From an uncultured Thermodesulfatator sp. (lineage in GTDB: Bacteria; Desulfobacterota; Dissulfuribacteria; Dissulfuribacterales; QOAL01), in the NCBI GenBank assembly GCA_964581255.1, contig CAZOMT010000010.1:176156-240155 (forward strand): a stretch of 64,000 bases of DNA. Reading direction: 5' to 3'. The position numbers were made by a program, and so were the translations under genes. The notes below the pieces were generated by a model that searched no databases, was not told where the DNA came from, and saw nothing but the letters and a program-made list of their open reading frames with translations. Below, piece after piece: positions 11,067 through 43,160 of this stretch. Within the stretch, counting starts at the first letter, position 1. Every line of letters begins with the position of its first letter.

Positions 11067-11198
11067 GTTTACCTTGCCCTCCTTCCATACAGGGATTAAA
11101 AAATTTCAATGGTGCCATCTCCAACAGATGGTTTTAAGGCCGCAAGGCCTCGGAAAAAAAATAATAACTTTTGAAAAAATTTCCAGCGATCAAAAAAT

Positions 11199-27042: not shown

Positions 27043-27600
27043 ATGGAAAATGAATCGCGATTCATAAACGGGGTAAAGGGTCTGATCTTCACCATCGACC
27101 ACGTTAGCGAATTGATGGGGAAGGCGGTCTCCTGGTGTTCCTTGCTATTGGTAATCCTGGTCACATTGAATGTGATACTTCGCTACGCCTTCAATATCAG
27201 TTTTGTATTTGCCGAAGAGATGCAGTGGCACCTTTATGCCCTCATATTCCTTTTGGGCGCAGGATACACATTGAGATACAACGGCCACGTAAGAGTTGAT
27301 GTCTTTTATCAACGCCTTGGCAAAAGGGCACGGGCATTCATAAATGTAATGGGTTGCCTCCTATTCCTCTTTCCAGGTTGCTTTCTTGTGATAAAGACCT
27401 CCATTCCGTTTGTGGAATCTTCCTGGGCCATGCAAGAGGGCTCAGCCGACCCTGGTGGCCTGCCTTGCAGATACCTGCTGAAAGCTGTCATCCCCCTTGC
27501 CTTTGCCCTCCTTTCCATACAAGGCCTGTCCATGTTTCTGAAAAGCCTTTTTACATTGTTTGGAAGGCCTATCCCTGACCGGAAGAAAGGGGGCATCTAA
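27043..27600 (+). CDS. dctQ: TRAP transporter small permease (DctQ family)
   Basis: 185-aa four-TM protein. Its stop overlaps the start of the large-permease gene. Confidence 0.8.
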   Translation: MENESRFINGVKGLIFTIDHVSELMGKAVSWCSLLLVILVTLNVILRYAFNISFVFAEEMQWHLYALIFLLGAGYTLRYNGHVRVDVFYQRLGKRARAFINVMGCLLFLFPGCFLVIKTSIPFVESSWAMQEGSADPGGLPCRYLLKAVIPLAFALLSIQGLSMFLKSLFTLFGRPIPDRKKGGI

Positions 27601-28919
27601 TGGATTATCTAGCCGCATGGATGTTTCTTACCTTAACCATCCTCCTTCTTGCGGGTTTTCCTGTGGCCTTCACCTTACTGGGCACTGCCCTTTGCTTTGG
27701 CCTGATAGGATTTGGCTGGGATTTTTTCAACCTTCTACCCATGAGGATTTGGGGTGTAATTACAAACTTTACCCTTGTAGCAGTGCCATTGTTCATATTC
27801 ATGGGGGTCATGTTGGAACGTTCCGGCATAGCAGGCGACCTGCTGAAAAGCATGGGGATGGCTTTTGGTAGGATAAGAGGCGGGCTTGCAGTATCTGTTG
27901 TAGTGGTGGGAGCCCTTCTTGGTGCCTCCACAGGTATAGTTGGTGCTACTGTTGTCACTATGGGCCTGCTTGCTCTGCCCACCATGATAGAATATGGCTA
28001 CAGAAAGGAACTTGCCACTGGAACCATAGCATCATCAGGAACTCTGGGGCAAATAATCCCACCGAGTATCGTTCTGGTGCTCTTGGGGGACATAATAGGG
28101 GTTTCAGTGGGGGATCTCTTTATAGGGGCTGTTATACCCGGCCTCATATTGGTAATTCTATATGTTATCTATATCCTTGTGACTTCCTGTTTGCATCCCG
28201 ACTGGGCTCCACCAATCAAGGATGACACATTCAAGGAAGAAGGACGGTCTTTTGCACTATATCTCTTGAAGTCATTGATTCCGCCGCTGTCACTGATGGT
28301 CGCTGTCCTTGGTTCCATCTTTGCAGGTATTGCCTCGCCCACAGAAGCTGCAGGCGTAGGAGCGACTGGGGCTACTCTTCTTTGTATCTTGAACAAACGC
28401 TTCAACATGGATGTACTCAGGACTGTCATGGAGACTACGGTTCAGCTCACAAGCATGGTCTTCATCATATTGGTAGGCGCAACGGCATTTGGGCTGGTCT
28501 TCAGAGGGCTCGGAGGTGATATTGTCATAAGGCAGTTTGTCACCCACATCCCTTTTGGGAAATGGGGGGTGCTGGCCACTGTAATGGCTGTTATCTTCAT
28601 AGCAGGTTTTTTTCTGGACTTCATTGAAATCACCTTCATTCACATACCAGTGCTTGCTCCCCTTATGAAGACAATGGGATTTGACCCTGTATGGTTTGCA
28701 ATTCTTTTTGCGGTAAATCTGCAAACCTCTTTTCTCACGCCACCCTTTGGTTTCTCGCTATTCTATCTTAAAGGTGTCGCGCCGCCAGAGGTATCCACTG
28801 TCCAAATCTATAAGGGGATTATACCCTTTGTGGCCATTCAGCTGATTGGACTGTTTATAGTGGTGCTTTTTCCTGAAACAGCAACTTGGCTGCCACGGCT
28901 CATGAACTCCCTGAGATAG
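27600..28919 (+). CDS. dctM: TRAP transporter large permease (DctM family)
   Basis: 439-aa polytopic protein with DctM-like blocks (AVPLFIFMG, GGLAVSVVV, TLGQIIPPS, FGFSLFYLKG). Confidence 0.9.
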   Translation: MDYLAAWMFLTLTILLLAGFPVAFTLLGTALCFGLIGFGWDFFNLLPMRIWGVITNFTLVAVPLFIFMGVMLERSGIAGDLLKSMGMAFGRIRGGLAVSVVVVGALLGASTGIVGATVVTMGLLALPTMIEYGYRKELATGTIASSGTLGQIIPPSIVLVLLGDIIGVSVGDLFIGAVIPGLILVILYVIYILVTSCLHPDWAPPIKDDTFKEEGRSFALYLLKSLIPPLSLMVAVLGSIFAGIASPTEAAGVGATGATLLCILNKRFNMDVLRTVMETTVQLTSMVFIILVGATAFGLVFRGLGGDIVIRQFVTHIPFGKWGVLATVMAVIFIAGFFLDFIEITFIHIPVLAPLMKTMGFDPVWFAILFAVNLQTSFLTPPFGFSLFYLKGVAPPEVSTVQIYKGIIPFVAIQLIGLFIVVLFPETATWLPRLMNSLR

Positions 28920-29335: not shown

Positions 29336-30193
29336 CTACCTTTCCTTGTTGTTTTCCAATTTTTCATCTGTTATCACATTTCTGTTCCTTTTTGTGGCAT
29401 CTACCTCAAGCTGTGGCACCTGGCTGTAATGGCCGTGTCTCAGGGAGGCACGCACTTTCTGGAGCAGCCTGCGCCGTGAAACACGAGGAGAACGCCTTAA
29501 GTGTTTATTGAAGTAGTAGGTAAATGCCCCGTGAAATCGGCCATTTATATAGGCATCTGCAGATGTCTGATCTGCCCTGCAACCTGCCCATAAAATGTGG
29601 TGTTTCCTTTTCCTCCTCTTGGCACCTTCTATGAATCCTCTATATTCCAACTCATCCTCCTCGCCTGAAAAGCGCAATAGCAGATCGGTGGGAGGTGGGA
29701 GATAGCGGCTGATAATTTTAGGCTCTTCATCTTCGACAGGAGGTTCAAGTCCTATATTTCTGAGCCCGGTTCCTGAATGACAAGAATCCAGGACTACTTC
29801 GAGCAAAGCACCTGCTGGCACATTTTTGAGTATGCTATTTAGTTCGTCGTCTGTGATATAGGTGCCGCTCCAGTCCATGTCATAGGGACAGATGAGCTCA
29901 TCCAGGTGGTCCACCAGTTCATCACCATCCCTGTCCCTGATCTGGGACCCATGGCCTGAAAAGTGGAAAAAGAGGAAATCCCCTGGTTTGGCATCGTCCA
30001 CCAACCATCTAAGACGCGCCAAGATATTGTCTTTGGTTGCCCTACTGTCAGTAAGGACCCTGATCTCCTTTGTCTTGAACCCAAATAGGCTTCTGAGGGA
30101 AAAGTGCATGTCCAATACATCGTTGATACATCCTCTCAAATCGTTGACCTTTTCGTAATCGTTTATCCCTACGAGCAATGCCTTCCTACCCAT
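29336..30193 (-). CDS. Orthocaspase / caspase-fold (C14) cysteine peptidase with p20- and p10-like regions
   Basis: ALLVGINDY, catalytic His in FFHFSGHG, catalytic Cys in VLDSCHSG, and a p10-like ILWAGCRADQTSADA...GAFTYYF. AAGGAG RBS. Confidence 0.85.
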   Translation of the reverse strand: MGRKALLVGINDYEKVNDLRGCINDVLDMHFSLRSLFGFKTKEIRVLTDSRATKDNILARLRWLVDDAKPGDFLFFHFSGHGSQIRDRDGDELVDHLDELICPYDMDWSGTYITDDELNSILKNVPAGALLEVVLDSCHSGTGLRNIGLEPPVEDEEPKIISRYLPPPTDLLLRFSGEEDELEYRGFIEGAKRRKRKHHILWAGCRADQTSADAYINGRFHGAFTYYFNKHLRRSPRVSRRRLLQKVRASLRHGHYSQVPQLEVDATKRNRNVITDEKLENNKER

Positions 30194-30230
30194 TTTTAGT
30201 CTCCTTTGGTGTACTGGGACATGCCAGATT

Positions 30231-30713
30231 TCACTCTTTGGACATGTCTGGCAGTTGCCCTGCCTTTCGTTCGTATATGAAGGCAGGAGTTACGAATATC
30301 CAGCGTTGCGGTTCGCCTTCCTTTTTCGTTTGGATTAGCCAGGCCTCACGGCCTGGTGAACCGTCATACACGAATACCGGTTCTTGAAGGGTCTCTCCTT
30401 CCTCTATGGGGACTGTCGAAACTACCCGTTCAAGTGCCTCCTTACCTGACAAGCCGGTGACCATTGACGCCCCGTTTAGGGCGCCAATGGCTGCAACTTC
30501 ACCGGTGCCGGTAATTCTGGCAAACCCCTTCAGCTGACCACTTGGTTTTATGGGCACCAGCCAATAGCCAGGGTTGCCTTGCAGGTCCCTCACAAGTACC
30601 GGCTCTCCAATGACGACACTGTTCCACTGGGAAAATTCCAGTTCACCACTCATGCTTAGCATTAAAGCTGCATTAAGCGCCTTCTTCTTTGCCTCTTCCG
30701 CAGAAATGAACAT
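30231..30713 (-). CDS. 160-aa hypothetical protein with two PepSY/prodomain-like repeats, paralogous by eye to the N-terminal region of the upstream peptidase
   Basis: ISAEEAKKKAL...EPVLVRDLQGNPGYWLVPIKPSGQLKGFARI and LSGKEALERV...EPVFVYDGSPGREAWLIQ. Likely ATG at 30713. Lies 17 nt after the upstream stop. Confidence 0.55.
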   Translation of the reverse strand: MFISAEEAKKKALNAALMLSMSGELEFSQWNSVVIGEPVLVRDLQGNPGYWLVPIKPSGQLKGFARITGTGEVAAIGALNGASMVTGLSGKEALERVVSTVPIEEGETLQEPVFVYDGSPGREAWLIQTKKEGEPQRWIFVTPAFIYERKAGQLPDMSKE

Positions 30714-30730
30714 CAATGCATTCCTTTAGC

Positions 30731-31978
30731 TCAATGACACGTTTGAGTACGATGTCTTACATAGATAAAGTTGGTATGGGTTACAGCATTCCAATTTTCC
30801 CAATATACCCGTCCACCCTTGCATGGATCCGGGTTCCAAGGCCAAGGGTCATAGATCTTGAGCCATCGCTGGAGAGGCTGCCATATCAAGTGAAAATTCT
30901 GCCGCTTCCACCCGGCACAAGCCCTGGCATGGCCTGGGATACCTGATTTTAAGGGTCTGTTTGCATTTATTTCTGCCTGGGCTTCAACCCAGTTGGCGCT
31001 TGTATCGAGCGTGGCATCCAGACAGCCCTTTGAAAGGCTCTCATATCCTGTGACCTGTCCATTGAGGGTTGTACCGCCAGGGCCGGTACCCATAGCGTAG
31101 GCAATCTGATCCTGACTGAAGTAATACCTGTAAAAGTCAAGGATCATCTGGCCTGTTGCCACTGCGCAATAGACACTTGTCTTTTGCCCCCTGAGTTCGA
31201 AACAATCGTGGGGCGTACACCTTGGCGCATACCGCAACACCCTCCAAGAGTAAAAGGGTATGGGTATTGGGGTGGGACTCAAGGGATGGACCGGCTGAAT
31301 AGATGCAGCTATGGATGCCTTCAGATCCTTCAGTTCCTTAGAGCTAAAACCTCGGTCAAAGGCCCTTGGTATCCTGTCTTTCATGATCTCCAGTTCCTTG
31401 TCGGAAAGGTCCCAGAGGTATTCCCTCTTGGCAGCCTCAGGATATGCATATTCATGGTAAAAGGAATAGACGCCCGAGCCTTCTTCTTCGTGGTCGCTGA
31501 AGATCTCCACTTCAGATCCGTTTGAGACGTCGAATATGGTTGCCTGTTCAGTGCCGTCAGGCTCGCTGAAAAACACCCTTATCCCTATCCGGGGATAGCA
31601 ATAGCAAACCACATCCACATCCTTGATCTCTGCCTTGGGATATTTTTCCTTTACCTTTTTTTCAGCTTGTTTGGCCGCCTTGTCTGGATCCCATGACCTT
31701 TTTCCAAATTCTACAGTGACTATGGGGCTTCCCAATGCCCGGCTGGCACTCGCCTTGACTGTTCCAGACTCCTTTTTGCCATTGATCACCTTGAACTCGT
31801 AGAACAGTATCTCGCCATTCAGGTCATTGATCTCAAGAGGCTCTGGATCTACTTCACAGGCACCCCAAGGTTCCAGATCCCGTACCTGCCCTGCCCATTC
31901 TTTCCGTATTGTCATGAGCGCGTGTTCGTATGCACGTCCCTTGTCAACTGGACTCAATGGTTCCTTGTAAACCTTCAT
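30731..31978 (-). CDS. Papain-fold (C39-like/C1-like clan CA) cysteine peptidase with a ~250-aa N-terminal prodomain-like region
   Basis: Q-x5-C signature GQKTSVYCAVATGQMIL, later GIPGHARACAGW (His) and IYDPWPWNP (Asp/Asn). GGAGGAG RBS. Confidence 0.65.
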   Translation of the reverse strand: MKVYKEPLSPVDKGRAYEHALMTIRKEWAGQVRDLEPWGACEVDPEPLEINDLNGEILFYEFKVINGKKESGTVKASASRALGSPIVTVEFGKRSWDPDKAAKQAEKKVKEKYPKAEIKDVDVVCYCYPRIGIRVFFSEPDGTEQATIFDVSNGSEVEIFSDHEEEGSGVYSFYHEYAYPEAAKREYLWDLSDKELEIMKDRIPRAFDRGFSSKELKDLKASIAASIQPVHPLSPTPIPIPFYSWRVLRYAPRCTPHDCFELRGQKTSVYCAVATGQMILDFYRYYFSQDQIAYAMGTGPGGTTLNGQVTGYESLSKGCLDATLDTSANWVEAQAEINANRPLKSGIPGHARACAGWKRQNFHLIWQPLQRWLKIYDPWPWNPDPCKGGRVYWENWNAVTHTNFIYVRHRTQTCH

Positions 31979-32027
31979 GTTTTTCTCCTCCTTCTTTTTT
32001 GTCTTACCCTTGGTTAACTTGATATCT

Positions 32028-32071
32028 GGCCCTGCCTGCTAGGCCCTCTCTATCCTTGCACAGGCAGGGCC
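32028..32071 (-). promoter_or_regulatory. GC-rich 11-bp perfect hairpin in the predicted 5' leader of the protease operon
   Basis: GGCCCTGCCTG-22 nt-CAGGCAGGGCC, between the sigma-54-type promoter (about 32097-32110) and the RBS/ATG at 31978. Confidence 0.5.
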
Positions 32072-32095
32072 GCGCCTACCCTTCGATGGTGTTAT

Positions 32096-32112
32096 TGCCA
32101 CTTTTGTGCCTT
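32096..32112 (-). promoter_or_regulatory. Sigma-54 (-24/-12)-type promoter facing the protease operon
   Basis: Minus strand reads AAGGCACAAAAGTGGCAAT. GG (32110/32109) and GC (32098/32097) are separated by exactly 10 nt, fitting TGGCAC-N5-TTGC at 11 of the 15 consensus-aligned positions; the 10 specified consensus bases match at the core residues GGCAC and T-GC. Lies about 120 nt upstream of the ATG at 31978. A sigma-54 activator gene is adjacent. Confidence 0.55.
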
Positions 32113-32247
32113 ATGGCCGAATTCAAAAAATTTTTTTAAAATCGTTGATTAATTAATGGTTTTTATTGAAAAAACCGATTAAACAAATTCTTTGACCCAC
32201 ATTGTTTCTCGGATTATTTCGTAAACCTTATAGACATTTTTGGTTTT

Positions 32248-32270
32248 ATATGTAAACATTCTTTACATAT
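32248..32270. promoter_or_regulatory. Perfect 9-5-9 palindrome: candidate activator-binding site (UAS/operator)
   Basis: ATATGTAAA-cattc-TTTACATAT. Lies about 150 bp upstream of the -12 element and 25 bp upstream of the activator's own ATG. A second AT-rich palindrome, TTAATGGTTTTTATTGAAAAAACCGATTAA (32155-32182), and an IHF-like AATCAACGATTTT (minus strand, about 32141-32153) lie in between. Confidence 0.4.
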
Positions 32271-32294
32271 TCATGAGAATGGAGAATAACCCTT

Positions 32295-33851
32295 ATGAAA
32301 TCAACGGATAATATCTCCCTGTCTAAAGACGACTTTTCCCTCTTTTATGAGATCTCCACCTCTATCCAGGAAATTTGCGATCTCGATGAAATGCTTCACT
32401 CTATCCTTTCAAAGATCAAAAAGGCCTTCCATATAGAAGGGGTGTCTGTCGTGCTCCATGATCCAGAGAACAAGGAGTTTTATTTTTTGAGGGCTGCTGA
32501 ATCGGAGATGGGTCTTGATCCGCTTCGTATGCATGAGATGAGATTCCCAGATGACGTAGGGGTCGCTGGATGGGTTATGAGGGAGGGCCAAACTGTGGTT
32601 ATCCAAAACGTGGCCAGGGACGAAAGGTTTTTCAGCGGTCTCGATAACAAAAAGGGCTTTGTGACAAGATCTATGATATGCGTACCCCTCAAGACCAGGA
32701 GAGGTTTTACAGGCGTTTTATACGCACTCAACAAGATCCAGGGTAGTTTCTCTGAAAAGGATGCCAAGATCCTGGAGATCCTTTCCACTCCTATTGCAAT
32801 CTCCATTGAAAACGCTCGTCTTTACGGAGAACTAAAACGGCATGCAGACATCCTTGAAAGGCAAAACCGCCATCTGTGCAGCAAGGCTCAGGAAAGATTC
32901 AATAAAGAGGGGATTATTGGCAGGAGCGGTCCCATGCGGCAGCTCTTTTCATTGATCGACAAGGTGATAGACACCCCCACCACAGTGTTGATACAGGGAG
33001 AAACAGGTACTGGCAAGGAATTGGTCGCAAGGGTCATTCACTTCAGTGGCCCTTTGAAGGACAGGCCATTTGTTGCAGAAAATTGTGGCGCTCTTCCTGA
33101 AAATCTCCTGGAAAGTGAATTATTCGGCCATGTCAAAGGTGCCTTTACCGGTGCAACATCCGACAAGAAGGGACTCTTTGAGATAGCAGACGGCGGCACT
33201 ATATTTCTTGATGAAATAGGAGAGATGAGTCCGGCTATGCAGGTGAAGCTCCTTAGAGTGCTCCAGGAAGGCCAGATCCGGCCAGTTGGCTCCAACCGTT
33301 TCCGCAAAGTCAACGTGCGAGTCATCGCGTGTACCAATAGGGATCTGGAGCATGAAGTAAGGAGGGGAAGATTCAGGCAAGACCTGTTGTACAGAATAAA
33401 TGTATTCCCAATAACCGTTCCTGCACTCAGGGAAAGAAGGGACGATATACCCCTTCTTGTGGACCACTTCTTGAAAAAGGCAGCGGAAAAATTACACAGG
33501 CCTGCACCTACTGTCTCTCCTCTGGCCATGGATTTGCTTCTTAATTTCGACTGGCCTGGAAATATCAGGCAACTCGAAAATGAGATGGAGAGGGCATTGA
33601 TCCTTGCAGGTAGTTCATTGGAAATCGGGCCTGAACATTTGTCATTGAGATTGCAGCAGGATCTAGGATTCGACGGCCCCAAAGGCAACGAGGGGGCTTC
33701 ATTGAAAGAGGTGGTTCAAAGATTGGAGGCGGGAATGATCGAAAGGGCCCTATCCAAAACTGGTGGAAACAGGTCAAAGGCAGCTCGTCTCCTTGGGCTT
33801 ACCCGCCAAGGCTTGATAAACAAGATCAACCGCTACGATTTGAAGATCTGA
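32295..33851 (+). CDS. Sigma-54-dependent transcriptional activator (GAF - AAA+ - Fis-type HTH)
   Basis: N-terminal GAF-like domain. Walker A GETGTGKE, ESELFGHVKGAFTGA (GAFTGA loop), and the C-terminal HTH GGNRSKAARLLGLTRQGLINKI. Confidence 0.9.
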   Translation: MKSTDNISLSKDDFSLFYEISTSIQEICDLDEMLHSILSKIKKAFHIEGVSVVLHDPENKEFYFLRAAESEMGLDPLRMHEMRFPDDVGVAGWVMREGQTVVIQNVARDERFFSGLDNKKGFVTRSMICVPLKTRRGFTGVLYALNKIQGSFSEKDAKILEILSTPIAISIENARLYGELKRHADILERQNRHLCSKAQERFNKEGIIGRSGPMRQLFSLIDKVIDTPTTVLIQGETGTGKELVARVIHFSGPLKDRPFVAENCGALPENLLESELFGHVKGAFTGATSDKKGLFEIADGGTIFLDEIGEMSPAMQVKLLRVLQEGQIRPVGSNRFRKVNVRVIACTNRDLEHEVRRGRFRQDLLYRINVFPITVPALRERRDDIPLLVDHFLKKAAEKLHRPAPTVSPLAMDLLLNFDWPGNIRQLENEMERALILAGSSLEIGPEHLSLRLQQDLGFDGPKGNEGASLKEVVQRLEAGMIERALSKTGGNRSKAARLLGLTRQGLINKINRYDLKI

Positions 33852-33858
33852 AGAAAAA

Positions 33859-36120
33859 ATGCAAGGGACGCACCCAAGGAGCTTGCACAAATTTTATAAA
33901 TGGCGGCTAAACATCAAAAGTGTCGCGATCTTCTCGTTACTGGTGATATCTTCTGGATTTCTTTGTGCCCTCTATCCGCCTTTGTCCCAAAAGGCCCTGG
34001 AGGCGGATCTTGCCACGTGGTTCAGGCTCAGGCAATTCAAGCCCAGCCCTGAAGATGTGGTCATAGTAAACCTTGACAGTGAGTCCGGGGCCAGGCTTGG
34101 CCTGCCACCAAGTCCTGAAAAATGGCCACGCACCATCTACGCCAAGCTAGTTGAACGCCTTGCAGACCTTGGCGCCCTATCAATCGTGCTTGACGTCCAT
34201 TTTTCAGATGTAAAAAATCTTGAGGAAGACCTGGTCTTTGCAAAGGCAATCAAACAGGCCGCCAGTGTCGTGCTCTTTGAATATACCAACAGAAGGCTTA
34301 TCAAGCTTGATGCCGTAAGGGAAAACGGCCTTCCAAAAATCGCAATAGAAACCGCCATCCCGCCACTGCCTGTTCTTGCTTCTGCTGCTGTGGCTACCGC
34401 TCCATTTCCCTTGCCAAAGGTACCTGTCCGTCTAAACCGTTTTTGGACCTTCAAGTCTAGCCTTGGAGACGTGCCTAGCCTGCCAGTTGTGGCCCTATAT
34501 CTCTATGTGTTCAATAAGGAAAAAAGGCTCAAGGATAAGCTTTCTGAATTGTTTCCTGACCTTTTCCAAGAATTTGAAGATATGAGAAACGTGAAGCTGT
34601 TGGCACTGAGATTGAGACAGTATCTTCTTCTCAATAAAGGAGCTGCGGAAAGGGCTTTTAATGAGTTGGATCATGATGTGGCCCTCAAGATGGAAGAAAA
34701 AAGGCTCTTAAAGGTATTGATCTATACGGCAGCAGGTCCTGAAAGCCCCTTTTTGAACTTTTACGGCCCTCCTGGGACCATCCTTACCATACCATGCAGC
34801 ACGGTGTTGGCAGAGGAGTCAAGTGAGGAGCTCCTCATTAACAATATCAAGGGTCGTGTAGTCTTTGTGGGAGCTGCAACCAAGAATCCTTCGGAGCAAA
34901 AGGATGGCTTCTACACGGTCTACACTCGGCCTGACGGCCTCGATCTCAGCGGGGTAGAGATCGCTGCAACTGCCTTTGCCAATCTCCTGAACCAAGAATC
35001 TGTAAGGCCTGCGACAGCCTGGATGCGTGCCTTAATAATCGTGGCTTGGGGGCTATTTGTCACAATGGTCGCCTTTTTCCTGCCTCCAGTATTTTCTGCC
35101 CTTACATTCACAATGGGCGCTGCCACTTATGTGTATGGTGGCCTTGTCGCCTTTACAACAAAGACCATATGCCTACCTTTTTGGCTGCCTGTGATATTTC
35201 CATGTGTTCCAGCATATGGGTTCATGGTTTTATGGCAATACAGCAGGGTCAGAACAGAAAGAAAAAACATCAGCAAGGCCTTTAGCCACTATTTGCCATC
35301 AAAGGTGGTGGATACCCTTGCCAGGGACCGTACATTCATTAATAGGCCGCCTCAGTTACTCTATGGCGTCTGTTTAATGACAGATGCAGAACAATACACG
35401 TCCCTTTCAGAGCATATGGAACCTGGGGAATTGGCAAGGTTCATGAATCAATATTACGAGCATATCTTCGAGCCTGTAAAAAAGAATGGGGGGGTAATTT
35501 CAGACGTGTTGGGAGACTCCATGCTGGCAATCTGGACAGGAGCTGAACCAAACGTCAGGCTAAATGCATCTGCAATAAAGGCTGCGCTCGAGATCATGGA
35601 AAAGGTTCGAGACTTTAACAAAAAAAACAATCAGTCCATACAGCTCCCCACCCGTATAGGCCTCCATTCAGGACACCTTGCCCTTGGGCATCTCGGCACA
35701 CCTGACCATTTTGAATTTACTCCAATAGGCGATATCGTAAACACGGCCTCCCGCATAGAAGGCCTCAACAAATACTTGGGCACCAGGATCTTATCTTCTG
35801 GGGATCTGTTATCTCTGAATAATGGATTCCTCGTAAGAGAACTAGGCAGTTTCCTTTTAGCTGGCAAATCCAAACCAATTGTGATATACGAAATCTTAAG
35901 CACAATTGAAGAATCGACACCGTTTCAACGCCAACTGTGCAACTCTTTTGGCCAGGCATTGAGAAAATTCAGGGAGAGGAATTGGGATGAGGCTGCTAGG
36001 GGCTTTATGGAATGCGGAATAGATGGACCAGCCCGCTTCTATCTAAAATTGTGCAACGCCTACCTGAAAAATCCGCCCTTGGAAGACTGGACAGCTACTA
36101 TCAGACTGGATAGAAAATAG
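33859..36120 (+). CDS. CHASE2 sensor domain - class III adenylate/guanylate cyclase
   Basis: N-terminal TM, then a ~330-aa extracytoplasmic region (VIVNLDSES...VLDVHF, typical of the start of CHASE2) and three TM helices. Cyclase core is CLMTDAEQYTSLSE...GDSMLAIW...IGLHSGHLALG...IGDIVNTASRIEG. Starts 8 nt after the activator gene. Confidence 0.85.
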   Translation: MQGTHPRSLHKFYKWRLNIKSVAIFSLLVISSGFLCALYPPLSQKALEADLATWFRLRQFKPSPEDVVIVNLDSESGARLGLPPSPEKWPRTIYAKLVERLADLGALSIVLDVHFSDVKNLEEDLVFAKAIKQAASVVLFEYTNRRLIKLDAVRENGLPKIAIETAIPPLPVLASAAVATAPFPLPKVPVRLNRFWTFKSSLGDVPSLPVVALYLYVFNKEKRLKDKLSELFPDLFQEFEDMRNVKLLALRLRQYLLLNKGAAERAFNELDHDVALKMEEKRLLKVLIYTAAGPESPFLNFYGPPGTILTIPCSTVLAEESSEELLINNIKGRVVFVGAATKNPSEQKDGFYTVYTRPDGLDLSGVEIAATAFANLLNQESVRPATAWMRALIIVAWGLFVTMVAFFLPPVFSALTFTMGAATYVYGGLVAFTTKTICLPFWLPVIFPCVPAYGFMVLWQYSRVRTERKNISKAFSHYLPSKVVDTLARDRTFINRPPQLLYGVCLMTDAEQYTSLSEHMEPGELARFMNQYYEHIFEPVKKNGGVISDVLGDSMLAIWTGAEPNVRLNASAIKAALEIMEKVRDFNKKNNQSIQLPTRIGLHSGHLALGHLGTPDHFEFTPIGDIVNTASRIEGLNKYLGTRILSSGDLLSLNNGFLVRELGSFLLAGKSKPIVIYEILSTIEESTPFQRQLCNSFGQALRKFRERNWDEAARGFMECGIDGPARFYLKLCNAYLKNPPLEDWTATIRLDRK

Positions 36121-36195
36121 CTGCTCCTGCTTTTCGATTTCAAGGCTGGTTTCTATCTCTTGAAAAAAACAAAAGGCCCTCGGATGTGAGGTGTT

Positions 36196-39100
36196 ATGGA
36201 GCAAAAGACCAAATTATCCATAAGTATCCTAATCATATTTATTGAAATCATATTCTTCTTTGGCTTTGCAATAGGCCAAGAAAACAGACCAGAAACAGGG
36301 ATAGGGAAACTGGTATCTCTTAGAGGGGAAGTCCAGATCCAACGAGCGGGAAGTAGGCTATGGCAGCCTGCCAAGCTCCATGAGCAAATTTTTCCAGGAG
36401 ACATATTACGCACAGGCCCAAATAGCAGGGCCGCACTGCTACTGGCAAATGATTCCGTGGTGCGCCTTGGAGCCAACACATCCTTAGTGGTTTCAGGCAA
36501 GCAGAAAGCTTCTACCACCTTCATGAAACTTCTCAAGGGCGTGGCCCATTTTTTCAGCCGCTTTCCTCACAGTCTTGAGATCTCCACACCATTTGTGAAT
36601 GCTGCCATAGAAGGTACGGAATTTACCATCCACGTCCTTGAAGACAAAACAAATATCACTGTCCTGAATGGACGTGTCAGGGCAAGCAACGATTCTGGAA
36701 GTGTGGTTCTTGGCCCGAACCAGGCCGCAGTAGCATCCAAGGGTGCCAGGCCACAGAGTAGAATCGTACTAAACCCAACGGATGCTGTTCAGTGGGCCCT
36801 CTATTATCCTTCCGTACTTGATTTGACATGTGAAAGCATGGAAGGCCCAGGAGCAACAGACGTAAAAAGCGCTGTATCACTCTACAGGCAAGGCAATGTC
36901 ACACAAGCCATCAATGAACTTTCAAAGTTGCAGAATGGCTATCGTCAAGCATGGATTCAGGTGCTTATCGCCAGCATGTACCTTTCTGTGGGCCAGGCAG
37001 AAAAGGCCATGGTCCACCTTGACAAGGCCGAAGACATTGAACCGGGATTTGGCCCTGCAATGGCCATTAGGGCCATCATGGCCGTGGCCCAAAACAAGAA
37101 ACAAGAAGCCCTCTTGCTTTCTGCCAAGGCGATGTCCTTGGCCCCTTCTTCTGCGTCTCCACTGATTGCACGATCTTATGCCCTTCAGGCAGTATTCAGG
37201 CCAGAAGATGCCCTTTCAGTGCTCCAAAAGGCAGTTGTACTTGAGCCAAGAAACAGTCTTGCTTGGTCAAGGTTATCGGAATTGTGGCTTTGTGTCGGTG
37301 AGGTTTCAAACTCTGTTGAGGCAGCAACAAAGGCCGAGGCCCTGGACCCTTACAATGCCCGATCCAAAACCGTTTTGGGCTTTTCCTTGTTGGCTAGCCT
37401 TGATACAGAAAAGGCCATAAGTTCATTCAAAAAGGCCATAGAGATGAATCCTTCGGATCCTCTGCCACGATTGGGCCTTGGCCTTTCAAGGATAAAGGAT
37501 GGAGATGTGGACGAGGGCTTGGTGCAACTGGAGATAGCTGCTGCCCTTGATCCCGCCAATGCACTTATTAGGAGTTATCTCGGCAAGGCCTACTATGCCA
37601 AGTGCCGGCCAGAAAAGGCAGCTGCCCAGTTTGAGATGGCCCGCCGGCTCGATCCCAAAGACCCGACACCCTGGTTCTATGATGCCATACTCAAACAAAG
37701 CATAAACAGGCCTGTGGCTGCCCTCAAGGATCTTCAAAAATCCATAGAGCTTAACGACAACAGGGCCGTATACAGGTCTCGTCTCCTTCTGGACCAGGAT
37801 CTGGGAAGTAGAAGCACAAGCCTTGCCAGGATCTACAATGACCTGGGATTCGACCATTTGGCCTTGGTTGAGGGCTGGAAGTCGTTGGATTACGACCCTG
37901 GATCCTATTCTGCCCACCGTTTTCTGGCAGATTCTTATACCGCCTTGCCAAGACACGAAATCGCAAGGGTCAGTGAGCTTTTGAAATCTCAGCTGCTCCA
38001 GACCCTGAATATTGTACCCGTCCAACCCTATTTAGCAGAGAGCAAGCACTTTTTTTACACGGATACAGGCCCTTCGCTGCCTTCATATAACGAGTACACT
38101 CCGCTATTCATGTCAGACAGGCTGGCACTTCAAGCCAATGGCCTTGGCGGAACCAGGGGAACCTGGGGAGACGAGGTGGTGCAGGCCGGCCTTTTCAAAA
38201 GATATTCCTATAGCTTGGGTCAATTCCACTACGAGACCAATGGTTTCCGCCAGAATCAAGATCAGCGTCAAAACATATACAACGCATTCGTCCAGTCGGC
38301 ACTAGGGCCTCAGATAAATGTCCAGGCAGAATATAGACATCTACGGATAAAAAAGGGTGATCTATTCCTGCGTTTTGATCCAGAAAACTATTTCCCAGAC
38401 TTGAGGGATGATGAAAAGAGAAATTCATTGCGCTTGGGCATGACATACAGATTTGGGCCCGAAAACACGTTCCTGTCGTCCCTTATATTGGCTGAGACAG
38501 ATTGGCATACCAAGATTTTCCCAGAATATATCATAACAGATGAAGAAAGGGGCTTTCTCGCAGAAATTCAACACCTTTACAACGGGCCCAAGTTCAGTCT
38601 CATAACAGGGGCTGGCTGGTTTAAGACCAATCAGGAAATATCCCATGTTTTTGCGCCCTTTCAAGAGATTTCAGAAAGAGACACAATCCATCAGACAAAC
38701 CTCTACACTTATCCCCGGATCCGTTTGGGACATGGCTTGGTCCTTACCATTGGAGCCAGCGCAGATTTCTATGAGGGTACTGCAGGTAGCAGGGAACAGT
38801 TCAATCCAAAACTTGGACTTGTTTGGAATCCTTCTCCAGATACCACTATACGAATCGCAGGTTTCAGGGTCTTAAAGCGCATGCTCCTTACTGACCAGAC
38901 CGTGGAGCCCACAGAAGTCGCAGGCTTCAACCAGTTCTTTGACGACTATGAAGGCACCAGGAGCTGGCGTTATGGGTTTGGTGTGGACCAGCGCATCTTT
39001 TCCAATATCTATGGAGGCTTCGAGCTCAGTAGAAGAGACCTCGATGTTCCATACTTGGATTTTGAACTCGACAAGGTACTATATGCAGACTGGCGAGAAG

Positions 39101-39531
39101 ATCTTGTCAGTACCTACCTCTACTGGATAGCCTCCAACCATCTTGTGACCTCTGTCCAGTACCAATATGAAAGATTCAAAAGAAAGGACTACCAGCCTGG
39201 AGAAGAGGATATTGTATCTTTGAAGACCCACAGGTTGCCACTGTCTATAGGCCTTTTCCTTCCAGCTGGTTATGGAGCAAAGCTTACCACTACCGGAGTG
39301 TGGCAGTCTGGTCTCTTTGGCAACAAGAAAACAGGTATCTATCCAGGAGAGGACCATTTCTGGATAGTGGATCTTTCCCTGCGCTATAGGTTGCCTAAAA
39401 GATATGGAATGTTGGAGTTTAAGGCCAAAAATCTCCTGGATCATCACTTCAGGTTTCAGGACACTGATCCGTCAAATCCGAGCATATGTCCCAAACGTCT
39501 ATTGTTTGCTAGAATCACACTCTGGTTCTGA
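36196..39531 (+). CDS. 1111-aa envelope protein: signal/anchor - FecR-like domain - long TPR array - C-terminal beta-barrel-like domain
   Basis: Hydrophobic N-terminus. FecR-like region GKLVSLRGEVQIQRAG...IFPGDILRTGPNSRAALLLANDSVVRLGANTSLVV. Repeated TPR-like A/L/Y helices span about aa 230-600. The last ~470 aa alternate in a beta-strand pattern and end ...ARITLWF, the aromatic terminus typical of OM barrels. Confidence 0.7.
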   Translation: MEQKTKLSISILIIFIEIIFFFGFAIGQENRPETGIGKLVSLRGEVQIQRAGSRLWQPAKLHEQIFPGDILRTGPNSRAALLLANDSVVRLGANTSLVVSGKQKASTTFMKLLKGVAHFFSRFPHSLEISTPFVNAAIEGTEFTIHVLEDKTNITVLNGRVRASNDSGSVVLGPNQAAVASKGARPQSRIVLNPTDAVQWALYYPSVLDLTCESMEGPGATDVKSAVSLYRQGNVTQAINELSKLQNGYRQAWIQVLIASMYLSVGQAEKAMVHLDKAEDIEPGFGPAMAIRAIMAVAQNKKQEALLLSAKAMSLAPSSASPLIARSYALQAVFRPEDALSVLQKAVVLEPRNSLAWSRLSELWLCVGEVSNSVEAATKAEALDPYNARSKTVLGFSLLASLDTEKAISSFKKAIEMNPSDPLPRLGLGLSRIKDGDVDEGLVQLEIAAALDPANALIRSYLGKAYYAKCRPEKAAAQFEMARRLDPKDPTPWFYDAILKQSINRPVAALKDLQKSIELNDNRAVYRSRLLLDQDLGSRSTSLARIYNDLGFDHLALVEGWKSLDYDPGSYSAHRFLADSYTALPRHEIARVSELLKSQLLQTLNIVPVQPYLAESKHFFYTDTGPSLPSYNEYTPLFMSDRLALQANGLGGTRGTWGDEVVQAGLFKRYSYSLGQFHYETNGFRQNQDQRQNIYNAFVQSALGPQINVQAEYRHLRIKKGDLFLRFDPENYFPDLRDDEKRNSLRLGMTYRFGPENTFLSSLILAETDWHTKIFPEYIITDEERGFLAEIQHLYNGPKFSLITGAGWFKTNQEISHVFAPFQEISERDTIHQTNLYTYPRIRLGHGLVLTIGASADFYEGTAGSREQFNPKLGLVWNPSPDTTIRIAGFRVLKRMLLTDQTVEPTEVAGFNQFFDDYEGTRSWRYGFGVDQRIFSNIYGGFELSRRDLDVPYLDFELDKVLYADWREDLVSTYLYWIASNHLVTSVQYQYERFKRKDYQPGEEDIVSLKTHRLPLSIGLFLPAGYGAKLTTTGVWQSGLFGNKKTGIYPGEDHFWIVDLSLRYRLPKRYGMLEFKAKNLLDHHFRFQDTDPSNPSICPKRLLFARITLWF

Positions 39532-39565
39532 CAAGATCCAGGGATAAGAAAAGGAGGAGACTAGT

Positions 39566-39802
39566 ATGAGCGAAAAAAGACACAACAAGGCGTATTTCAA
39601 GGTATTGTACGACAAGGAGGGGGAAGTGATAGGGGTAGAGCCCCCAAAAGGAAAAGAGGTGAGAATACTAAACGAATGTGATCTATACAGAGAGCCCCTA
39701 AAAGACATAAATGGCATCAAGGCCACACTTATAATCTCGCGACCGGGAAACACCCCATGCTGTGTCAAGGCTGGCAGATGGCTTTGGTGCTGGTGCCTGT
39801 AA
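39566..39802 (+). CDS. 78-aa hypothetical protein with a C-terminal Cys/Trp-rich tail
   Basis: Strong RBS (AAGGAGGAG, 8 nt before the ATG). Lies 34 nt after the barrel gene. Ends ...RPGNTPCCVKAGRWLWCWCL. No signal peptide is visible. Confidence 0.5.
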   Translation: MSEKRHNKAYFKVLYDKEGEVIGVEPPKGKEVRILNECDLYREPLKDINGIKATLIISRPGNTPCCVKAGRWLWCWCL

Positions 39803-39825
39803 TGTACCTGGATATCAACAACGGA

Positions 39826-39849
39826 CCAGGGGCGGCTCAAAGCCCCTGG
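39826..39849 (+). terminator. 8-bp GC hairpin after the small ORF (terminator-like, no U-tract)
   Basis: CCAGGGGC-ggctcaaa-GCCCCTGG. Lies 24 nt after the stop. Confidence 0.3.
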
Positions 39850-40086
39850 ACATCAAGAGCTTGTCTTAAGGCTGCCTCAGACTCGAAGCTGATTTGTTCA
39901 AAACGGCTGATATAACGAGCCATGACAGTTTTTGGAAGATACCCATAAGGCCCAGGAGGAGTCAGGGCTGCCCCTCATGCCTTTGAGCTGCCTGAAAAAT
40001 CCGTATCGACAGGATAACTACGGTTATTCTTTTCTTGGGCCTTGTGCCTGAATTGAAATTACAGATTGCACACTGAAAGAAGATAC

Positions 40087-41664
40087 CTATCTCGTGGGTA
40101 GCTCAGGAGTGGGTTGGGCGTTGTCCATCTGCTCATCCTTTCCCGCGATGCCATGACACTTCTGATAAAAGGGGCAATTTTTGCATTCATGGATCTTTTC
40201 GGCGTAAGTGCCCATCACCCTGCCTTCGCACATTGTCCCTGCTATGGCCCAGCATATGCGTCCAAAATATGGATAGGCTGGGCACCGACGCGTAGGATCC
40301 TTTTCAATGCCGCACTTGATATATTGCCAGCACTGGGTCTTTTTGTCCTCTTCTTCGCTTTGATAGGGGAAGTGGAGGGTAAAGGTGGTTCCTGTGTCCT
40401 CGTCACTCTTGACTTCTATAAAGCCCCTGTGCTCTTCCAGGATCTTTTGCACAATGGCCAGTCCCAGGCCAGTTCCTACCCCAATCTTCTTGGTTGAATA
40501 AAAAGGCTGAAAGATGAGAGCCAGCTTTTCCTTGGGTATGGGCCTTCCAGTATTGTTTATGGAGACGATGACCCAGAGGACCTCGTTTTGCATCTTTGTC
40601 CCTGTAGTTACCGATATGGTGCCTCCTTCGTGGCTCACTGCATCTATTGCATTGGTTATGAGGTTTCCAATGGCCTGTTTTATTTGGTCGTAATCAAAAT
40701 AGACCCTTGGAAGATCTGGCATATAATTTTCAATCAGACGTATCTTTTCTGTTTGGCAAAGATCACAGAAAAATTCCACTGCATCCCTGACAGGCTCATT
40801 TATGTCACCACGTTTGAGTTCAAAGCGAAATTGTTCGGAGGACAATATCATGACATCCTTGAGTATTGCCTCAAGCCTTTCCGCCTCGGCGAGAATGACC
40901 CTTAGATATTCCTTTTCTTTTGTGCCTTCTTTGATGTGTTTATCCAGACGCCTGGCCATGCCTCCGAGTGCCGATAACGGATTTCTTATCTCGTGGGCAA
41001 TGTCGTAGGTGAGCCTGCCCATAGCTGCCAGTTTTTCCGCCTCGATGAGCCTCGACTGCATGCGTTTGAGATATTCTATGGACTCTTCAAGGCGTCTGTT
41101 CAATTCCTCAATCCTTTTCTTGTCTCGCCTGAGCTTTTCTGAAAGAAGACCGAGAGGTATTGCGATAAGATATAAGAAAGCGATCCTGAGAGCCTGGTCT
41201 GTCCAGTGGATGGTGCCCAAGTAGGGTATGATGTTCACCAGATACATTATGCCAGAAATGGTGGCCACAAGGGCACCGAACTTGGGTCCAAAATAAAAGG
41301 TGTGAAGCGCTGTGAGCAGGTAATATCCAAGAAAGAAGCTATTGTTGAGATCCCTGTGGAAACTCACAAGGAAGAACACGAAAACCATGTCAAGGAAGAG
41401 GGAAGCTATATAGGCATATCTTATCTTCTCAGGCCGTTTGAATATGTAGATATATAGGAGACTGCTGTAGATAGAGAAGGCCACAAGGGCCTTGGCAAGA
41501 TCTCCCCTTTCCTTGTTTGAAAGGGGGGCCAGTAGCAACCAGGCGATCCCACCAAGCACTGTGACAATCCTGAGCACGAGAAAACCCAGATCTATGACGC
41601 CAAGGGGTCCACATGCCCTTTTGATGGTCTCTTTCAGGTGTTCGCTCAGGGTCCTCTTTGCCAT
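40087..41664 (-). CDS. Membrane sensor histidine kinase with a C-terminal Cys-rich domain (two 'CW' motifs)
   Basis: About 5 TM helices. H-box YDIAHEIRNPLSAL, N-box LITNAIDA and G-box GTGLGLAIV. Tail is QCWQYIKCG...RRCPAYPYFGRICWAIAGTMCEG...HECKNCPFYQKCHG, with 9 Cys. Confidence 0.85.
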   Translation of the reverse strand: MAKRTLSEHLKETIKRACGPLGVIDLGFLVLRIVTVLGGIAWLLLAPLSNKERGDLAKALVAFSIYSSLLYIYIFKRPEKIRYAYIASLFLDMVFVFFLVSFHRDLNNSFFLGYYLLTALHTFYFGPKFGALVATISGIMYLVNIIPYLGTIHWTDQALRIAFLYLIAIPLGLLSEKLRRDKKRIEELNRRLEESIEYLKRMQSRLIEAEKLAAMGRLTYDIAHEIRNPLSALGGMARRLDKHIKEGTKEKEYLRVILAEAERLEAILKDVMILSSEQFRFELKRGDINEPVRDAVEFFCDLCQTEKIRLIENYMPDLPRVYFDYDQIKQAIGNLITNAIDAVSHEGGTISVTTGTKMQNEVLWVIVSINNTGRPIPKEKLALIFQPFYSTKKIGVGTGLGLAIVQKILEEHRGFIEVKSDEDTGTTFTLHFPYQSEEEDKKTQCWQYIKCGIEKDPTRRCPAYPYFGRICWAIAGTMCEGRVMGTYAEKIHECKNCPFYQKCHGIAGKDEQMDNAQPTPELPTR

Positions 41665-41789: not shown

Positions 41790-42875
41790 TTAGAGCATGG
41801 AATCATAATAGGATTTCTCAGAAATCTCGTTCCAGGCTGCCAACTTCTTCTTGAAGGCCATGAAATCCTCATTCACCTTTTTTGCCAGGGGGTCCTTGGC
41901 GGCAGTTTCCGAAATGGTCTCTGCGGCAAGCCTTTTGAGGCCTTCCATGACCTCATCTGGAAATCGCAATAGCTGAATCTTGTGGGACCTTTTTAACTCG
42001 GCCAAGGCCTTTGCGTTTTCTGTTTCAAATTCCGATAGCATGGTCACGTTGAGTTCAGCCGCTGCAGTTTCCACAGCCGCCTTGATATCGGCTGGTAAGG
42101 CTTCATATGCCTTCTTGTTCATGATGAATTCCAAGGTGCTGCCAGGTTCATGCCATCCTGGATAATAATAGTACTTGGCAACCTTGTAAAAACCCATTCT
42201 TATATCGTGGCATGGGCCGATCCATTCGGTGGCATCGATAACACCCCGTTCAAGAGATGTATAGATCTCCCCTGCAGGCAGAAGCACCACTGCGCCTCCA
42301 GCCTTGGCAAGCACCTTTCCCCCAAGGCCAGGGATCCTCATCTTGAGTCCCTTGAAATCCGCCATGGAATTTATCTTCTTGTTGAACCATCCACCCATCT
42401 GAAAGCCAGTGTTGCCAGCCGGCCGAGGCACCAGATTGAAGGGCTTGTATACCTCTTCCCAGAGCTTAAGACCATTTCCAAAATAGAACCAGGCATTCAT
42501 GCCCTGGGCATCCATCCCAAAGGGGACACAGGTGAACCACTGGGCAGCATTGCATTTGCCAGCCCAGTAGTATGCCGCACTGTGGCCACAGTGCACAGAG
42601 CCAGATGAAACTGCATCAAACACACCAAGGGGAGGAACGAGTTCTCCTCCTGCATAGACCTGAATGGTAAGCCTGCCATTTGTGAGTTCCTCAACCCGTT
42701 TTGCAAAACGTTCCACTCCAGTCTGAAGTATAGGGAAGGCAGGAGGCCATGAGGTCACCATTCTCCATCTTATCTTCTCACTGGATGTGGCTTGTGCAGA
42801 TCCTGCGCCTAAGGCTGACGCTGCAACCGCTGCTCCTGCAATAGCTCCCTTTTTGAGCAAATTTCGCCTGTCCAT
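41790..42875 (-). CDS. dctP: TRAP transporter substrate-binding protein (DctP family) with a twin-arginine-like signal peptide
   Basis: ATG at 42875 (AGGAGG RBS) gives MDRRNLLKKGAIAGAAVAASALGAGSAQA, and the body is DctP-like. The track's upstream start is rejected. Confidence 0.85.
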   Translation of the reverse strand: MDRRNLLKKGAIAGAAVAASALGAGSAQATSSEKIRWRMVTSWPPAFPILQTGVERFAKRVEELTNGRLTIQVYAGGELVPPLGVFDAVSSGSVHCGHSAAYYWAGKCNAAQWFTCVPFGMDAQGMNAWFYFGNGLKLWEEVYKPFNLVPRPAGNTGFQMGGWFNKKINSMADFKGLKMRIPGLGGKVLAKAGGAVVLLPAGEIYTSLERGVIDATEWIGPCHDIRMGFYKVAKYYYYPGWHEPGSTLEFIMNKKAYEALPADIKAAVETAAAELNVTMLSEFETENAKALAELKRSHKIQLLRFPDEVMEGLKRLAAETISETAAKDPLAKKVNEDFMAFKKKLAAWNEISEKSYYDSML

Positions 42876-43160
42876 AAAAAACCTCCTTATCTGTTCTTGT
42901 GTGAAAAAAGTATTTCTTACCTGTCCCCTTATCCTGTTTTTGAAGAAATCGAGCAAATTTCATGGCACAGGTTATGGACCTTATACGTCTGTCGTATGGG
43001 GAACGCAATACGAAATGGTTCAAAACCGCAAATCAATGCCACCTGTGCCTGTTTTTTTACTTTTCTCTTTTTTTAAGTTGCGCGCTCCTTTTTTTCACCT
43101 AAAATATCTTGAATCTTAGCATTAATACCAAGCCTTAAATTTGATGGCCAAAAACAAGCG

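Follow-up and report, generated by a model that had tools for sequence, protein, structure and literature searches.

An NsrA-like FecR-TPR-barrel protein encoded beside a CHASE2 cyclase is a predicted outer-membrane receptor

What is the function of a protein that joins a FecR domain and a tetratricopeptide repeat (TPR) arm to a predicted outer-membrane barrel, and whose gene follows that of a CHASE2 cyclase? The question is raised by a 64,000-nucleotide stretch of DNA from an uncultured Thermodesulfatator sp. (assembly GCA_964581255.1, contig CAZOMT010000010.1, positions 176,156 to 240,155), which in its full length is called the window. The open reading frame (ORF) at 36196..39531 on the plus strand starts with ATG, runs for 1111 codons plus a stop, and ends in ...ARITLWF. 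A first-pass annotation described the product as a giant fusion and proposed either an outer-membrane sensor that feeds the cyclase or an export pore for a small protein encoded downstream. The signals that CHASE2 domains sense are still listed as unknown, and to our knowledge NsrA of Sinorhizobium meliloti is the only studied example of an outside signal reaching them. The ORF is classified here as an NsrA-like outer-membrane receptor gene based on the reading frame, full-length homologues, homology to the FecR-TPR-barrel protein of S. meliloti pSymB, and an AlphaFold2 model. It probably encodes the outer-membrane half of an NsrA-type two-membrane signaling module with the CHASE2 cyclase. Four computed results support this assignment: the anatomy of the protein, the barrel model, the full-length homology to the pSymB protein, and the linkage to the cyclase gene. 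The role as a receptor for the cyclase would follow by analogy with the genetics of S. meliloti NsrA.

The AlphaFold2 model of the full-length receptor was computed from an input alignment of 119 sequences and is confident, with a mean predicted local distance difference test score (pLDDT) of 87.5 and a predicted template modeling score of 0.86. Together with the ORF and the Pfam matches, the model bears out the four-part anatomy of the first-pass annotation. Residues 9–27 are a hydrophobic 19-mer (mean Kyte-Doolittle value 2.66) between MEQKTK and AIG|QEN, and hydropathy identifies it as the sole transmembrane (TM)-like segment. An equivalent stretch is present in 110 of 119 homologues, usually followed by an AxA-type site and then 'ETCEEW'. 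The model has a helix at residues 2–22 and a low-pLDDT segment at 22–32. By this heuristic, residues 1–27 (36196..36276, +; MEQKTK, hydrophobic core, and AIG) look like a Sec signal peptide, in agreement with the N-terminal hydrophobic signal proposed earlier. The FecR-type beta domain spans residues 37–190 (36304..36765, +) and is predicted to be periplasmic. Pfam PF04773 (FecR) matches residues 70–162 (E = 5.7e-16; 59 bits compared to a cut-off of 24), which confirms the FecR-like assignment, and the whole of residues 37–190 is modelled as all-beta with a pLDDT of about 90. The next segment, also predicted to be periplasmic, is a TPR superhelix at residues 194–601 (36775..37998, +) that is modelled as all-helical with 22 helices. 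Numerous Pfam TPR models match between about residues 224 and 530, and a sequence search of the PDB with the receptor gave TPR matches only (consensus TPR proteins). The earlier estimate of 350–400 TPR residues was therefore sound. A conserved extended linker, residues 602–641 (37999..38118, +), connects the superhelix to the barrel and is coil in the model, with pLDDT means of 57–69 in 10-residue blocks and 85 and 91 at its ends. Its family-invariant residues include Q602, N605, P608, G625, E633, and F638.

DSSP, Foldseek, Pfam, hhalign, and the C-terminal signature identify residues 642–1111 (38119..39528, +) as a beta-barrel that resembles the TonB-dependent transporters. Residues 642–1110 are all-beta in the model, and DSSP assigns 23 strand elements. 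With both barrel ends facing the periplasm, the number of strands has to be even, and by our count the barrel would have 22 strands if 822–827 and 831–844 form one kinked strand. TonB-dependent transporters account for 49 of the 50 best Foldseek matches in the PDB and for all the beta-barrel proteins among them (E about 1e-14 to 1e-12; target-normalised TM-score 0.43–0.60). FptA (1xkw, E = 1.9e-14) leads the list, followed by OprC, PqqU, FecA, FhuE, BtuB, and others. The lone non-transporter, a designed TPR protein at rank 32, aligns to the TPR arm, and BcsC, PgaA, and Slam are not among these top 50. TonB_dep_Rec_b-barrel (PF00593) matches residues 677–887 weakly (24.4 bits, below the gathering cut-off of 27), OMP_b-brl is a further weak sub-threshold match, and most homologues have a precomputed PF00593 match. 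Of 119 homologues, 99 end in F, and positions −3, −5, −8, and −9 are hydrophobic, a pattern that fits the beta-signal of outer-membrane proteins. The claim of a C-terminal barrel of ~470 residues with a terminal aromatic residue is thus upheld. An outer-membrane location is predicted from the signal peptide, the C-terminal beta-signal, and the barrel model.

A Pfam scan at E ≤ 0.01 found no Plug (PF07715) match in the receptor; no separate search for a TonB-box motif was made. Upstream of the barrel the model contains only the FecR domain, the TPR region, and the 40-residue coil. In our strand assignment on the model, the putative extracellular loops are short except for 721–736, 894–921, and 1082–1100. 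Loops 894–921 and 1082–1100 and the 602–641 linker hold many family-invariant residues, in motifs such as QTxEPTQVAGFNQFFDD and FxFQDTDPxNPxIxPER. These three segments are candidates for filling or gating the barrel lumen.

The combination of these parts in one polypeptide is not novel, contrary to what the term giant fusion had implied. The best 120 database homologues are all 1049–1157 residues long, share 46–70% identity at 94–100% query coverage, and have both FecR and TPR matches, and most of them also have the PF00593 barrel match. A barrel-only search of 1.84 billion representative sequences, clustered at 50% identity, gave 2478 clusters at E ≤ 1e-3 and 1038 at E ≤ 1e-30. The matched proteins are mostly 1060–1175 residues with the barrel at the C terminus, and the shorter ones may be fragments. 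A scan of one genome per species located relatives in at least 577 species genomes. They occur in Desulfobacterota, Nitrospirota, Gammaproteobacteria (Methylococcales, Nitrosomonas), Rokubacteria, Brocadia, Spirochaetia, and Binatia, and the databases call them 'TPR repeat protein', 'FecR domain-containing protein', or 'TonB-dependent receptor'. These data show that the FecR-TPR-barrel layout of ~1100 residues is the standard form of a widespread, little-studied family and not a unique fusion.

NsrA is the outer-membrane receptor that S. meliloti requires, along with CyaK and CyaD1/D2, for signal perception (PMC7529298, PMC13001267, PMC10463352). The NsrA barrel was placed at amino acids 600–1200, and purified ribosomal protein uL2 activates the pathway with an effect that depends on NsrA and CyaK (PMC7529298). 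CyaK is SMb20776 and is encoded on pSymB (PMC5498481). A tblastn search of plasmids with the receptor gave one homologue per listed S. meliloti pSymB, matching query residues 31–1092 with ~23% identity. In strain ml59 the homologue is a 1202-residue 'FecR domain-containing protein' with FecR and TPR matches, and CHASE2 and cyclase reading frames directly follow its gene (9173–11476, +, in our locus L002). BLASTP aligned the receptor with this protein at E = 5e-25 in the N-terminal half and at 1e-15 over residues 311–1097. A comparison of the family profile with the last 602 residues of the pSymB homologue by hhalign gave a probability of 96.5% and E = 7e-10 over 399 columns. We take the pSymB homologue to be NsrA because of its length, its pSymB position beside a CHASE2 cyclase gene, and a 2018 paper by Garnerone et al. 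(J Bacteriol 200:e00019-18) that reportedly described NsrA as a member of the FecR-TPR-barrel family. From these comparisons we infer that the window receptor is a distant, orthologue-level relative of NsrA. The proposal of an outer-membrane sensor feeding the cyclase is thus supported by precedent, through NsrA genetics (PMC7529298, PMC13001267, PMC10463352) and the homology to the pSymB protein.

Two further observations concern the S. meliloti locus. The CHASE2 and cyclase parts in ml59 sit in two frames with no gene listed, and a frameshift, a pseudogene, or an assembly error is possible. Divergent from the nsrA-like gene lies a DUF5706 gene (L002 5244–5789, −) whose product matches Pfam PycTM, a Pycsar effector protein, with E = 9e-12. 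This gene puts a cyclic-nucleotide-associated membrane effector beside the S. meliloti cyclase locus.

The first-pass annotation correctly placed a CHASE2 cyclase gene upstream of the receptor gene and a small ORF 34 nt downstream. The cyclase gene (33859..36120, +) is separated from the receptor gene by 76 nt, and its product matches CHASE2 (E = 1.4e-26) and Guanylate_cyc (E = 3e-12). Hydropathy and Pfam describe an inner-membrane receptor cyclase with a TM segment at 21–39, a periplasmic CHASE2 domain at ~40–390, a hydrophobic TM region at ~391–447 (two segments scored), and a class III cyclase domain at 506–673. Linkage was counted over 79 related loci, and a cyclase was scored as absent only if at least 2.6 kb of flank was available on each side, which left 69 informative loci. 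In 40 loci the gene directly upstream, in the same orientation, encodes a CHASE2-cyclase homologue, and in 22 more such a gene is located elsewhere within 7 kb. It is absent from 7 loci with sufficient flank on both sides, and in a further 10 loci without it the flank is too short for judgement. A CHASE2 cyclase therefore lies within 7 kb of the receptor gene in 62 of the 69 informative loci (~90%), across several phyla. The co-occurrence of this architecture with CHASE2 proteins, raised in the first pass, is borne out by these counts. In two cyclase-free gammaproteobacterial loci (L040 10662–14097 and L064 9590–12876), the receptor gene is followed by the gene for a 211–233-residue protein with no domain match and then by one for a HAMP-PAS-GGDEF-EAL protein. 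This arrangement suggests that an NsrA-like receptor can be wired to c-di-GMP enzymes instead of a cyclase.

A sigma-54 activator with GAF, AAA+, and helix-turn-helix domains (32295..33851, +) is the candidate reader of the pathway output. Its gene ends 8 nt upstream of the cyclase gene, and its Pfam matches are Sigma54_activat (E = 1.4e-70), GAF (E = 2.8e-14), and HTH_8. Eight other loci have close orthologues (638–668 bits) in the same cluster, five of them with the orthologue directly adjoining the cyclase gene, and L083, a fully syntenic relative, has the activator gene as well.

These components suggest the following mechanism. The receptor would be exported by Sec, and its 22-strand transporter-like barrel would then insert into the outer membrane, with the ~400-residue TPR superhelix and the N-terminal FecR domain remaining in the periplasm. 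The cyclase, whose gene lies 76 nt upstream, would sit in the inner membrane, with the FecR/TPR arm touching its periplasmic CHASE2 domain. A cue at or through the barrel would alter this contact and thereby set the cyclase output. The cyclic nucleotide would probably be read by the co-transcribed GAF sigma-54 activator. The cue is proteinaceous in S. meliloti (PMC7529298). The direct FecR-CHASE2 contact, the cue in the window organism, the filling of the barrel, the GAF domain as a cyclic nucleotide receptor, and the role of the small protein are the elements of this scheme that we infer.

Several points weigh against an NsrA-type receptor. The identity of the pSymB homologue as NsrA is deduced from its length, its gene position, and the reported description of 2018, and the window receptor is just about 23% identical to the S. 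meliloti protein. Neither Pfam nor the model detects a plug domain for a barrel this large. The surface loops are predicted to be short, and conservation within the barrel is highest in loops 894–921 and 1082–1100, a pattern that would be surprising in a receptor diversifying toward different ligands. The receptor's partner is not fixed, because seven informative loci are without the cyclase and two of these have a HAMP-PAS-GGDEF-EAL protein in its place. The GAF domain of the activator is only a partial match to the cyclic nucleotide-binding NKFDE motif (NK-x4-F-x3-D-A). We know of no family member for which a direct FecR-CHASE2 contact has been demonstrated, and the receptor function of the window protein and its close relatives is predicted by analogy.

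The conserved loops lead to the rival explanation that survives best, in which the protein spans the gap between the outer membrane and the inner-membrane cyclase, to which it signals the integrity of the outer membrane, the width of the periplasm, or envelope stress, with the barrel as an anchor only. Short extracellular loops and 46–50% identity across phyla, loops included, fit a constant partner better than varied ligands, and the 22-helix superhelix in the model could be a long rigid arm that spans the periplasm. The S. meliloti 'signal 1' activity is present in plant, yeast, and bacterial extracts, which resembles a generic rather than a specific cue (PMC7529298). However, purified uL2 triggers the S. 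meliloti pathway in an NsrA- and CyaK-dependent manner (PMC7529298), a large 22-strand barrel is a costly anchor, and the conserved loops could equally be a conserved binding site. We consider an envelope-state sensor or tether unlikely.

The second rival involves the small ORF at 39566..39802 (+), which encodes 78 residues and was recognized by an upstream AGGAGG, its relatives, a family hidden Markov model (HMM), and an alignment. It begins 34 nt past the receptor stop codon, and an AGGAGG at 39552–39557 precedes its ATG by 8 nt. The protein is Cys/Trp-rich, with an N-terminal beta-hairpin and a C-terminal ...PGNTPCCVKAGRWLWCWCL motif. It has no match in Pfam or NCBIfam, and hydropathy reveals no hydrophobic segment or signal peptide. 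Relatives with 74–88% identity occur on other contigs, and many related loci have an ORF of 60–135 residues 20–250 nt beyond the receptor gene. These ORFs share the N-terminal hairpin 'h-h-h-D-x-x-G-x-h-x-V' and a C-terminal motif with two or more Cys, roughly [NS]-[PS]-x-C-x(5-9)-G-x-[WYF]-x(2-3)-C; examples are L001 13516–13728, L043 10453–10683, and L068 10374–10637. The family HMM matches 25 of 10078 ORFs in the related loci. Every one of these 25 matches lies beyond the 3' end of an NsrA-like gene, at a distance of 23–2040 nt (within 160 nt in 21 cases); in some loci the ORF occurs twice or a copy is convergent. With a control-based threshold, a clear member is present in 25 of the 77 loci that have at least 500 nt downstream, a count that largely equals the training set, and more divergent candidates recognized by eye push the number higher. 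About two thirds of the loci are without a clear member. These include most gammaproteobacterial loci, and the S. meliloti receptor gene is followed by no candidate at all. Sec or lipoprotein signal peptides are present in some of the family but not in the window copy or many others.

The AlphaFold2 model of the small protein, built from 12 sequences, is of low confidence (mean pLDDT 55). A profile search of 5.8 billion proteins found 10 relatives, all 'hypothetical' and none with a Pfam domain. The family is possibly new and unannotated, and in this data set nearly all of its members adjoin NsrA-like genes. Candidate roles for the protein are ligand, plug, co-receptor, and substrate. A dedicated receptor partner, either a self-made ligand in an autocrine or quorum-type loop or the missing plug of the barrel, would create a new self-contained protein-sensing trans-envelope cyclic nucleotide pathway, and we give this idea a small chance. 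In its autocrine form, the signal could pass from the small protein to the outer-membrane receptor, the CHASE2 cyclase, the cyclic nucleotide, and finally the GAF sigma-54 activator.

The small protein could also be cargo, which was the other function offered in the first pass. The TPR arm would dock the small protein or another periplasmic substrate, the wide barrel would pass it through the outer membrane for export or surface display, in the way that Slam handles lipoproteins and BcsC and PgaA handle polymers, and the cyclase would merely regulate the process or be co-regulated. This explanation draws on the recurrence of one small-ORF family at the 3' end of the receptor gene in at least 25 of 77 loci, with most HMM matches close to the gene, on the signal peptides of some family members, on a barrel without a detected plug, and on a TPR-then-barrel order that is the layout of known exporters. 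However, the barrel is of the TonB-dependent transporter type and not of the BcsC/PgaA or Slam type, and outside the TPR region the receptor matches no exporter family HMM. The window protein and many of its relatives are without a signal peptide and would not reach the periplasm via Sec. The small ORF is missing as a clear member from about two thirds of the loci and has no candidate after the S. meliloti gene, whereas the cyclase linkage is far tighter (~90% of informative loci). The genetics of NsrA indicate perception rather than export (PMC7529298). An export pore is thus the weaker of the two functions first proposed, and we regard it as quite improbable. The last rival, a degenerate TonB-dependent transporter for nutrient uptake whose FecR domain would do the signaling as in FecA/FecR/FecI, has in its favor the Foldseek barrel fold, the PF00593 matches (weak here, precomputed in most homologues), and the name 'TonB-dependent receptor' given to some relatives, but it is very improbable given that there is no Plug match, the N terminus is a signal peptide followed by a FecR domain, PF00593 is sub-threshold (24.4 compared to 27), no extracytoplasmic function (ECF) sigma factor, TonB, or ExbBD match was found in the 18 neighboring ORFs scanned (27600–48644), and the FecR domain of the Fec system sits in an inner-membrane anti-sigma factor and not in the barrel protein. 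Each of the three rivals fits fewer observations than an NsrA-type receptor for the CHASE2 cyclase.

The genes and signals around the module were also surveyed. A scan for sigma-54 promoters (TGGCAC-N5-TTGCW, up to 2 mismatches) gave 50 matches compared to 40 expected, which is no enrichment, and no convincing site before the receptor gene or the small ORF. A sigma-70 promoter and terminator scan of 31900–40200 was at or below the shuffle expectation, and no terminator was called after the small ORF. A sigma-54-type −24/−12 match, AGGCACAAAAGTGGCA, lies at 32096–32111 (−) upstream of the activator gene and points away from it, toward minus-strand genes at 30731–31978, 30231–30716, and 29336–30193; alone it is not statistically significant. 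Divergent sites of this type are also found upstream of the activator gene at L048 11853–11868 (−), L058 11966–11981 (−), L077 12476–12491 (−), and L060 14620–14635 (+), and in three relatives the site reads TGGCAT-N5-TCTGCA. In L048, L058, and L077 it precedes the gene for an exported protein of ~112–123 residues. The ORFs behind these sites are at L048 11336–11674 (−), L058 10880–11329 and 11487–11846 (−), and L077 11396–11827 and 11981–12352 (−). In L058 and L077 the exported-protein gene is followed by an ORF of 143–149 residues that by eye resembles a PilZ domain (KRHW...DVGSGGLSFEY).

The three minus-strand genes of the window (29336–31978) encode proteins of 415 residues with a weak Peptidase_C39_2 match, 161 residues with no match, and 285 residues with a caspase-like Peptidase_C14 match by Pfam. 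A sigma-54-dependent output of the pathway is one possible role for this trio. It is kept in the close relative L083, and a search of 80 related loci found no homologues in the others. Membership in the conserved module was rejected for want of homologues beyond L083. The operon is flanked by genes for a membrane histidine kinase (HisKA/HATPase) and a TRAP transporter (DctP, DctM), at 40087–41664 (−), 41790–42956 (−), and 27600–28919 (+). L083 is GCA_054020195.1, the closest syntenic genome, and it has the same flanks, which makes the region syntenic throughout. A polysaccharide synthase or Slam-type substrate gene was not found among the scanned neighbors. A FecIRA-type inner-membrane anti-sigma factor was also considered and rejected, given that the sole hydrophobic helix of the receptor is the predicted signal peptide and the scanned neighbors include no ECF sigma factor.

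For the window alone the result is modest: a functional annotation for a 'hypothetical / TPR repeat protein' that adds to the NsrA family, which is known but barely studied. A modest upside comes from the transporter-like barrel, for which no plug was detected, and from the small partner ORF, which is conserved. With more than 1000 sequence clusters spread over several phyla, the NsrA layout is a fixed module of very wide distribution. Because the layout is widespread and the barrel is predicted to be of the TonB-dependent transporter type with no detected plug, NsrA looks like one case of a general signaling route from the outer membrane to cyclic nucleotides and not a rhizobial curiosity. 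Three hypotheses follow: FecR contacts CHASE2; loops 894–921 and 1082–1100 or the 602–641 linker fill or gate the barrel; and the receptor has the small Cys/Trp protein as a partner.

The closest known system is NsrA itself (Garnerone et al. 2018; Sorroche et al. 2020, PMC7529298). The two receptors have a collinear signal peptide, FecR domain, TPR region, and C-terminal barrel (~600–1200 in NsrA, 642–1111 here), the pSymB protein is homologous to the window receptor in both the N-terminal part and the barrel, and both genes adjoin a CHASE2 class III cyclase gene. They differ in sequence (~23% identity), in length (1111 residues here compared to 1202), and in gene order, which is cyclase then receptor in the window and receptor then cyclase in S. 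meliloti. The window operon adds the GAF sigma-54 activator and the small Cys/Trp ORF, neither of which is at the S. meliloti locus, where the downstream reader is the Crp-type regulator Clr. The window host is no plant symbiont, so the cue is probably different.

The TonB-dependent transporters (FecA, FptA, OprC, PqqU, BtuB) have in common with the receptor the ~22-strand barrel fold and the weak PF00593 signal. A FecR domain is also the partner of such a barrel in the Fec system, whereas here the FecR domain is fused in cis through the TPR arm. The transporters have a plug, which is undetected in the receptor, and TonB/ExbBD genes are not among the scanned neighbors. The receptor loops are much shorter, and its barrel uses 470 residues compared to roughly 550–600 in the transporters. 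Like the receptor, BcsC, PgaA, and Slam place periplasmic TPRs on the N-terminal side of a C-terminal barrel in the outer membrane. The barrels of BcsC and PgaA have 16 strands and that of Slam has 14, whereas the receptor barrel has 22 by our count and no sequence or fold match to them outside the TPR region. NCBIfam PgaA and BcsC match the TPR part only, with 14–15 bits compared to cut-offs of 367 and 858, and Pfam gave no match to the BcsC_C, PgaA porin, or DUF560 barrels. Genes of the kinds linked to these exporters were not found; the neighbors are the sigma-54 activator, cyclase, histidine kinase, TRAP transporter, and caspase-like genes. The structural analogy drawn in the first pass was therefore rejected on barrel type, from the strand count, the Foldseek top 50 with its transporter barrels, and the HMMs.

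FecR and CHASE2 proteins are also paired elsewhere. Campylobacterota have a FecR outer-membrane protein, a TPR protein, and a CHASE2 cyclase together (PMC9239204). In that cAMP cluster the TPR protein is described as separate and a phosphodiesterase is included (PMC9239204), whereas the window unites FecR, TPR, and barrel in a single polypeptide and a phosphodiesterase was not observed. The 'BiofilmReg' operon of Burkholderia, also found in Pseudomonas aeruginosa PAO1, likewise has the gene for a periplasmic FecR protein beside that of a CHASE2 sensor (PMC5192318). That FecR protein is anchored to peptidoglycan by LysM and not by an outer-membrane barrel, and in Burkholderia and Pseudomonas it is paired with a CHASE2 histidine kinase rather than a cyclase (PMC5192318). 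In S. meliloti the FecR-domain protein SMc02177 adjoins cyaD1 (SMc02176) by locus tag. These examples support FecR-CHASE2 as a general pairing that recurs in other forms.

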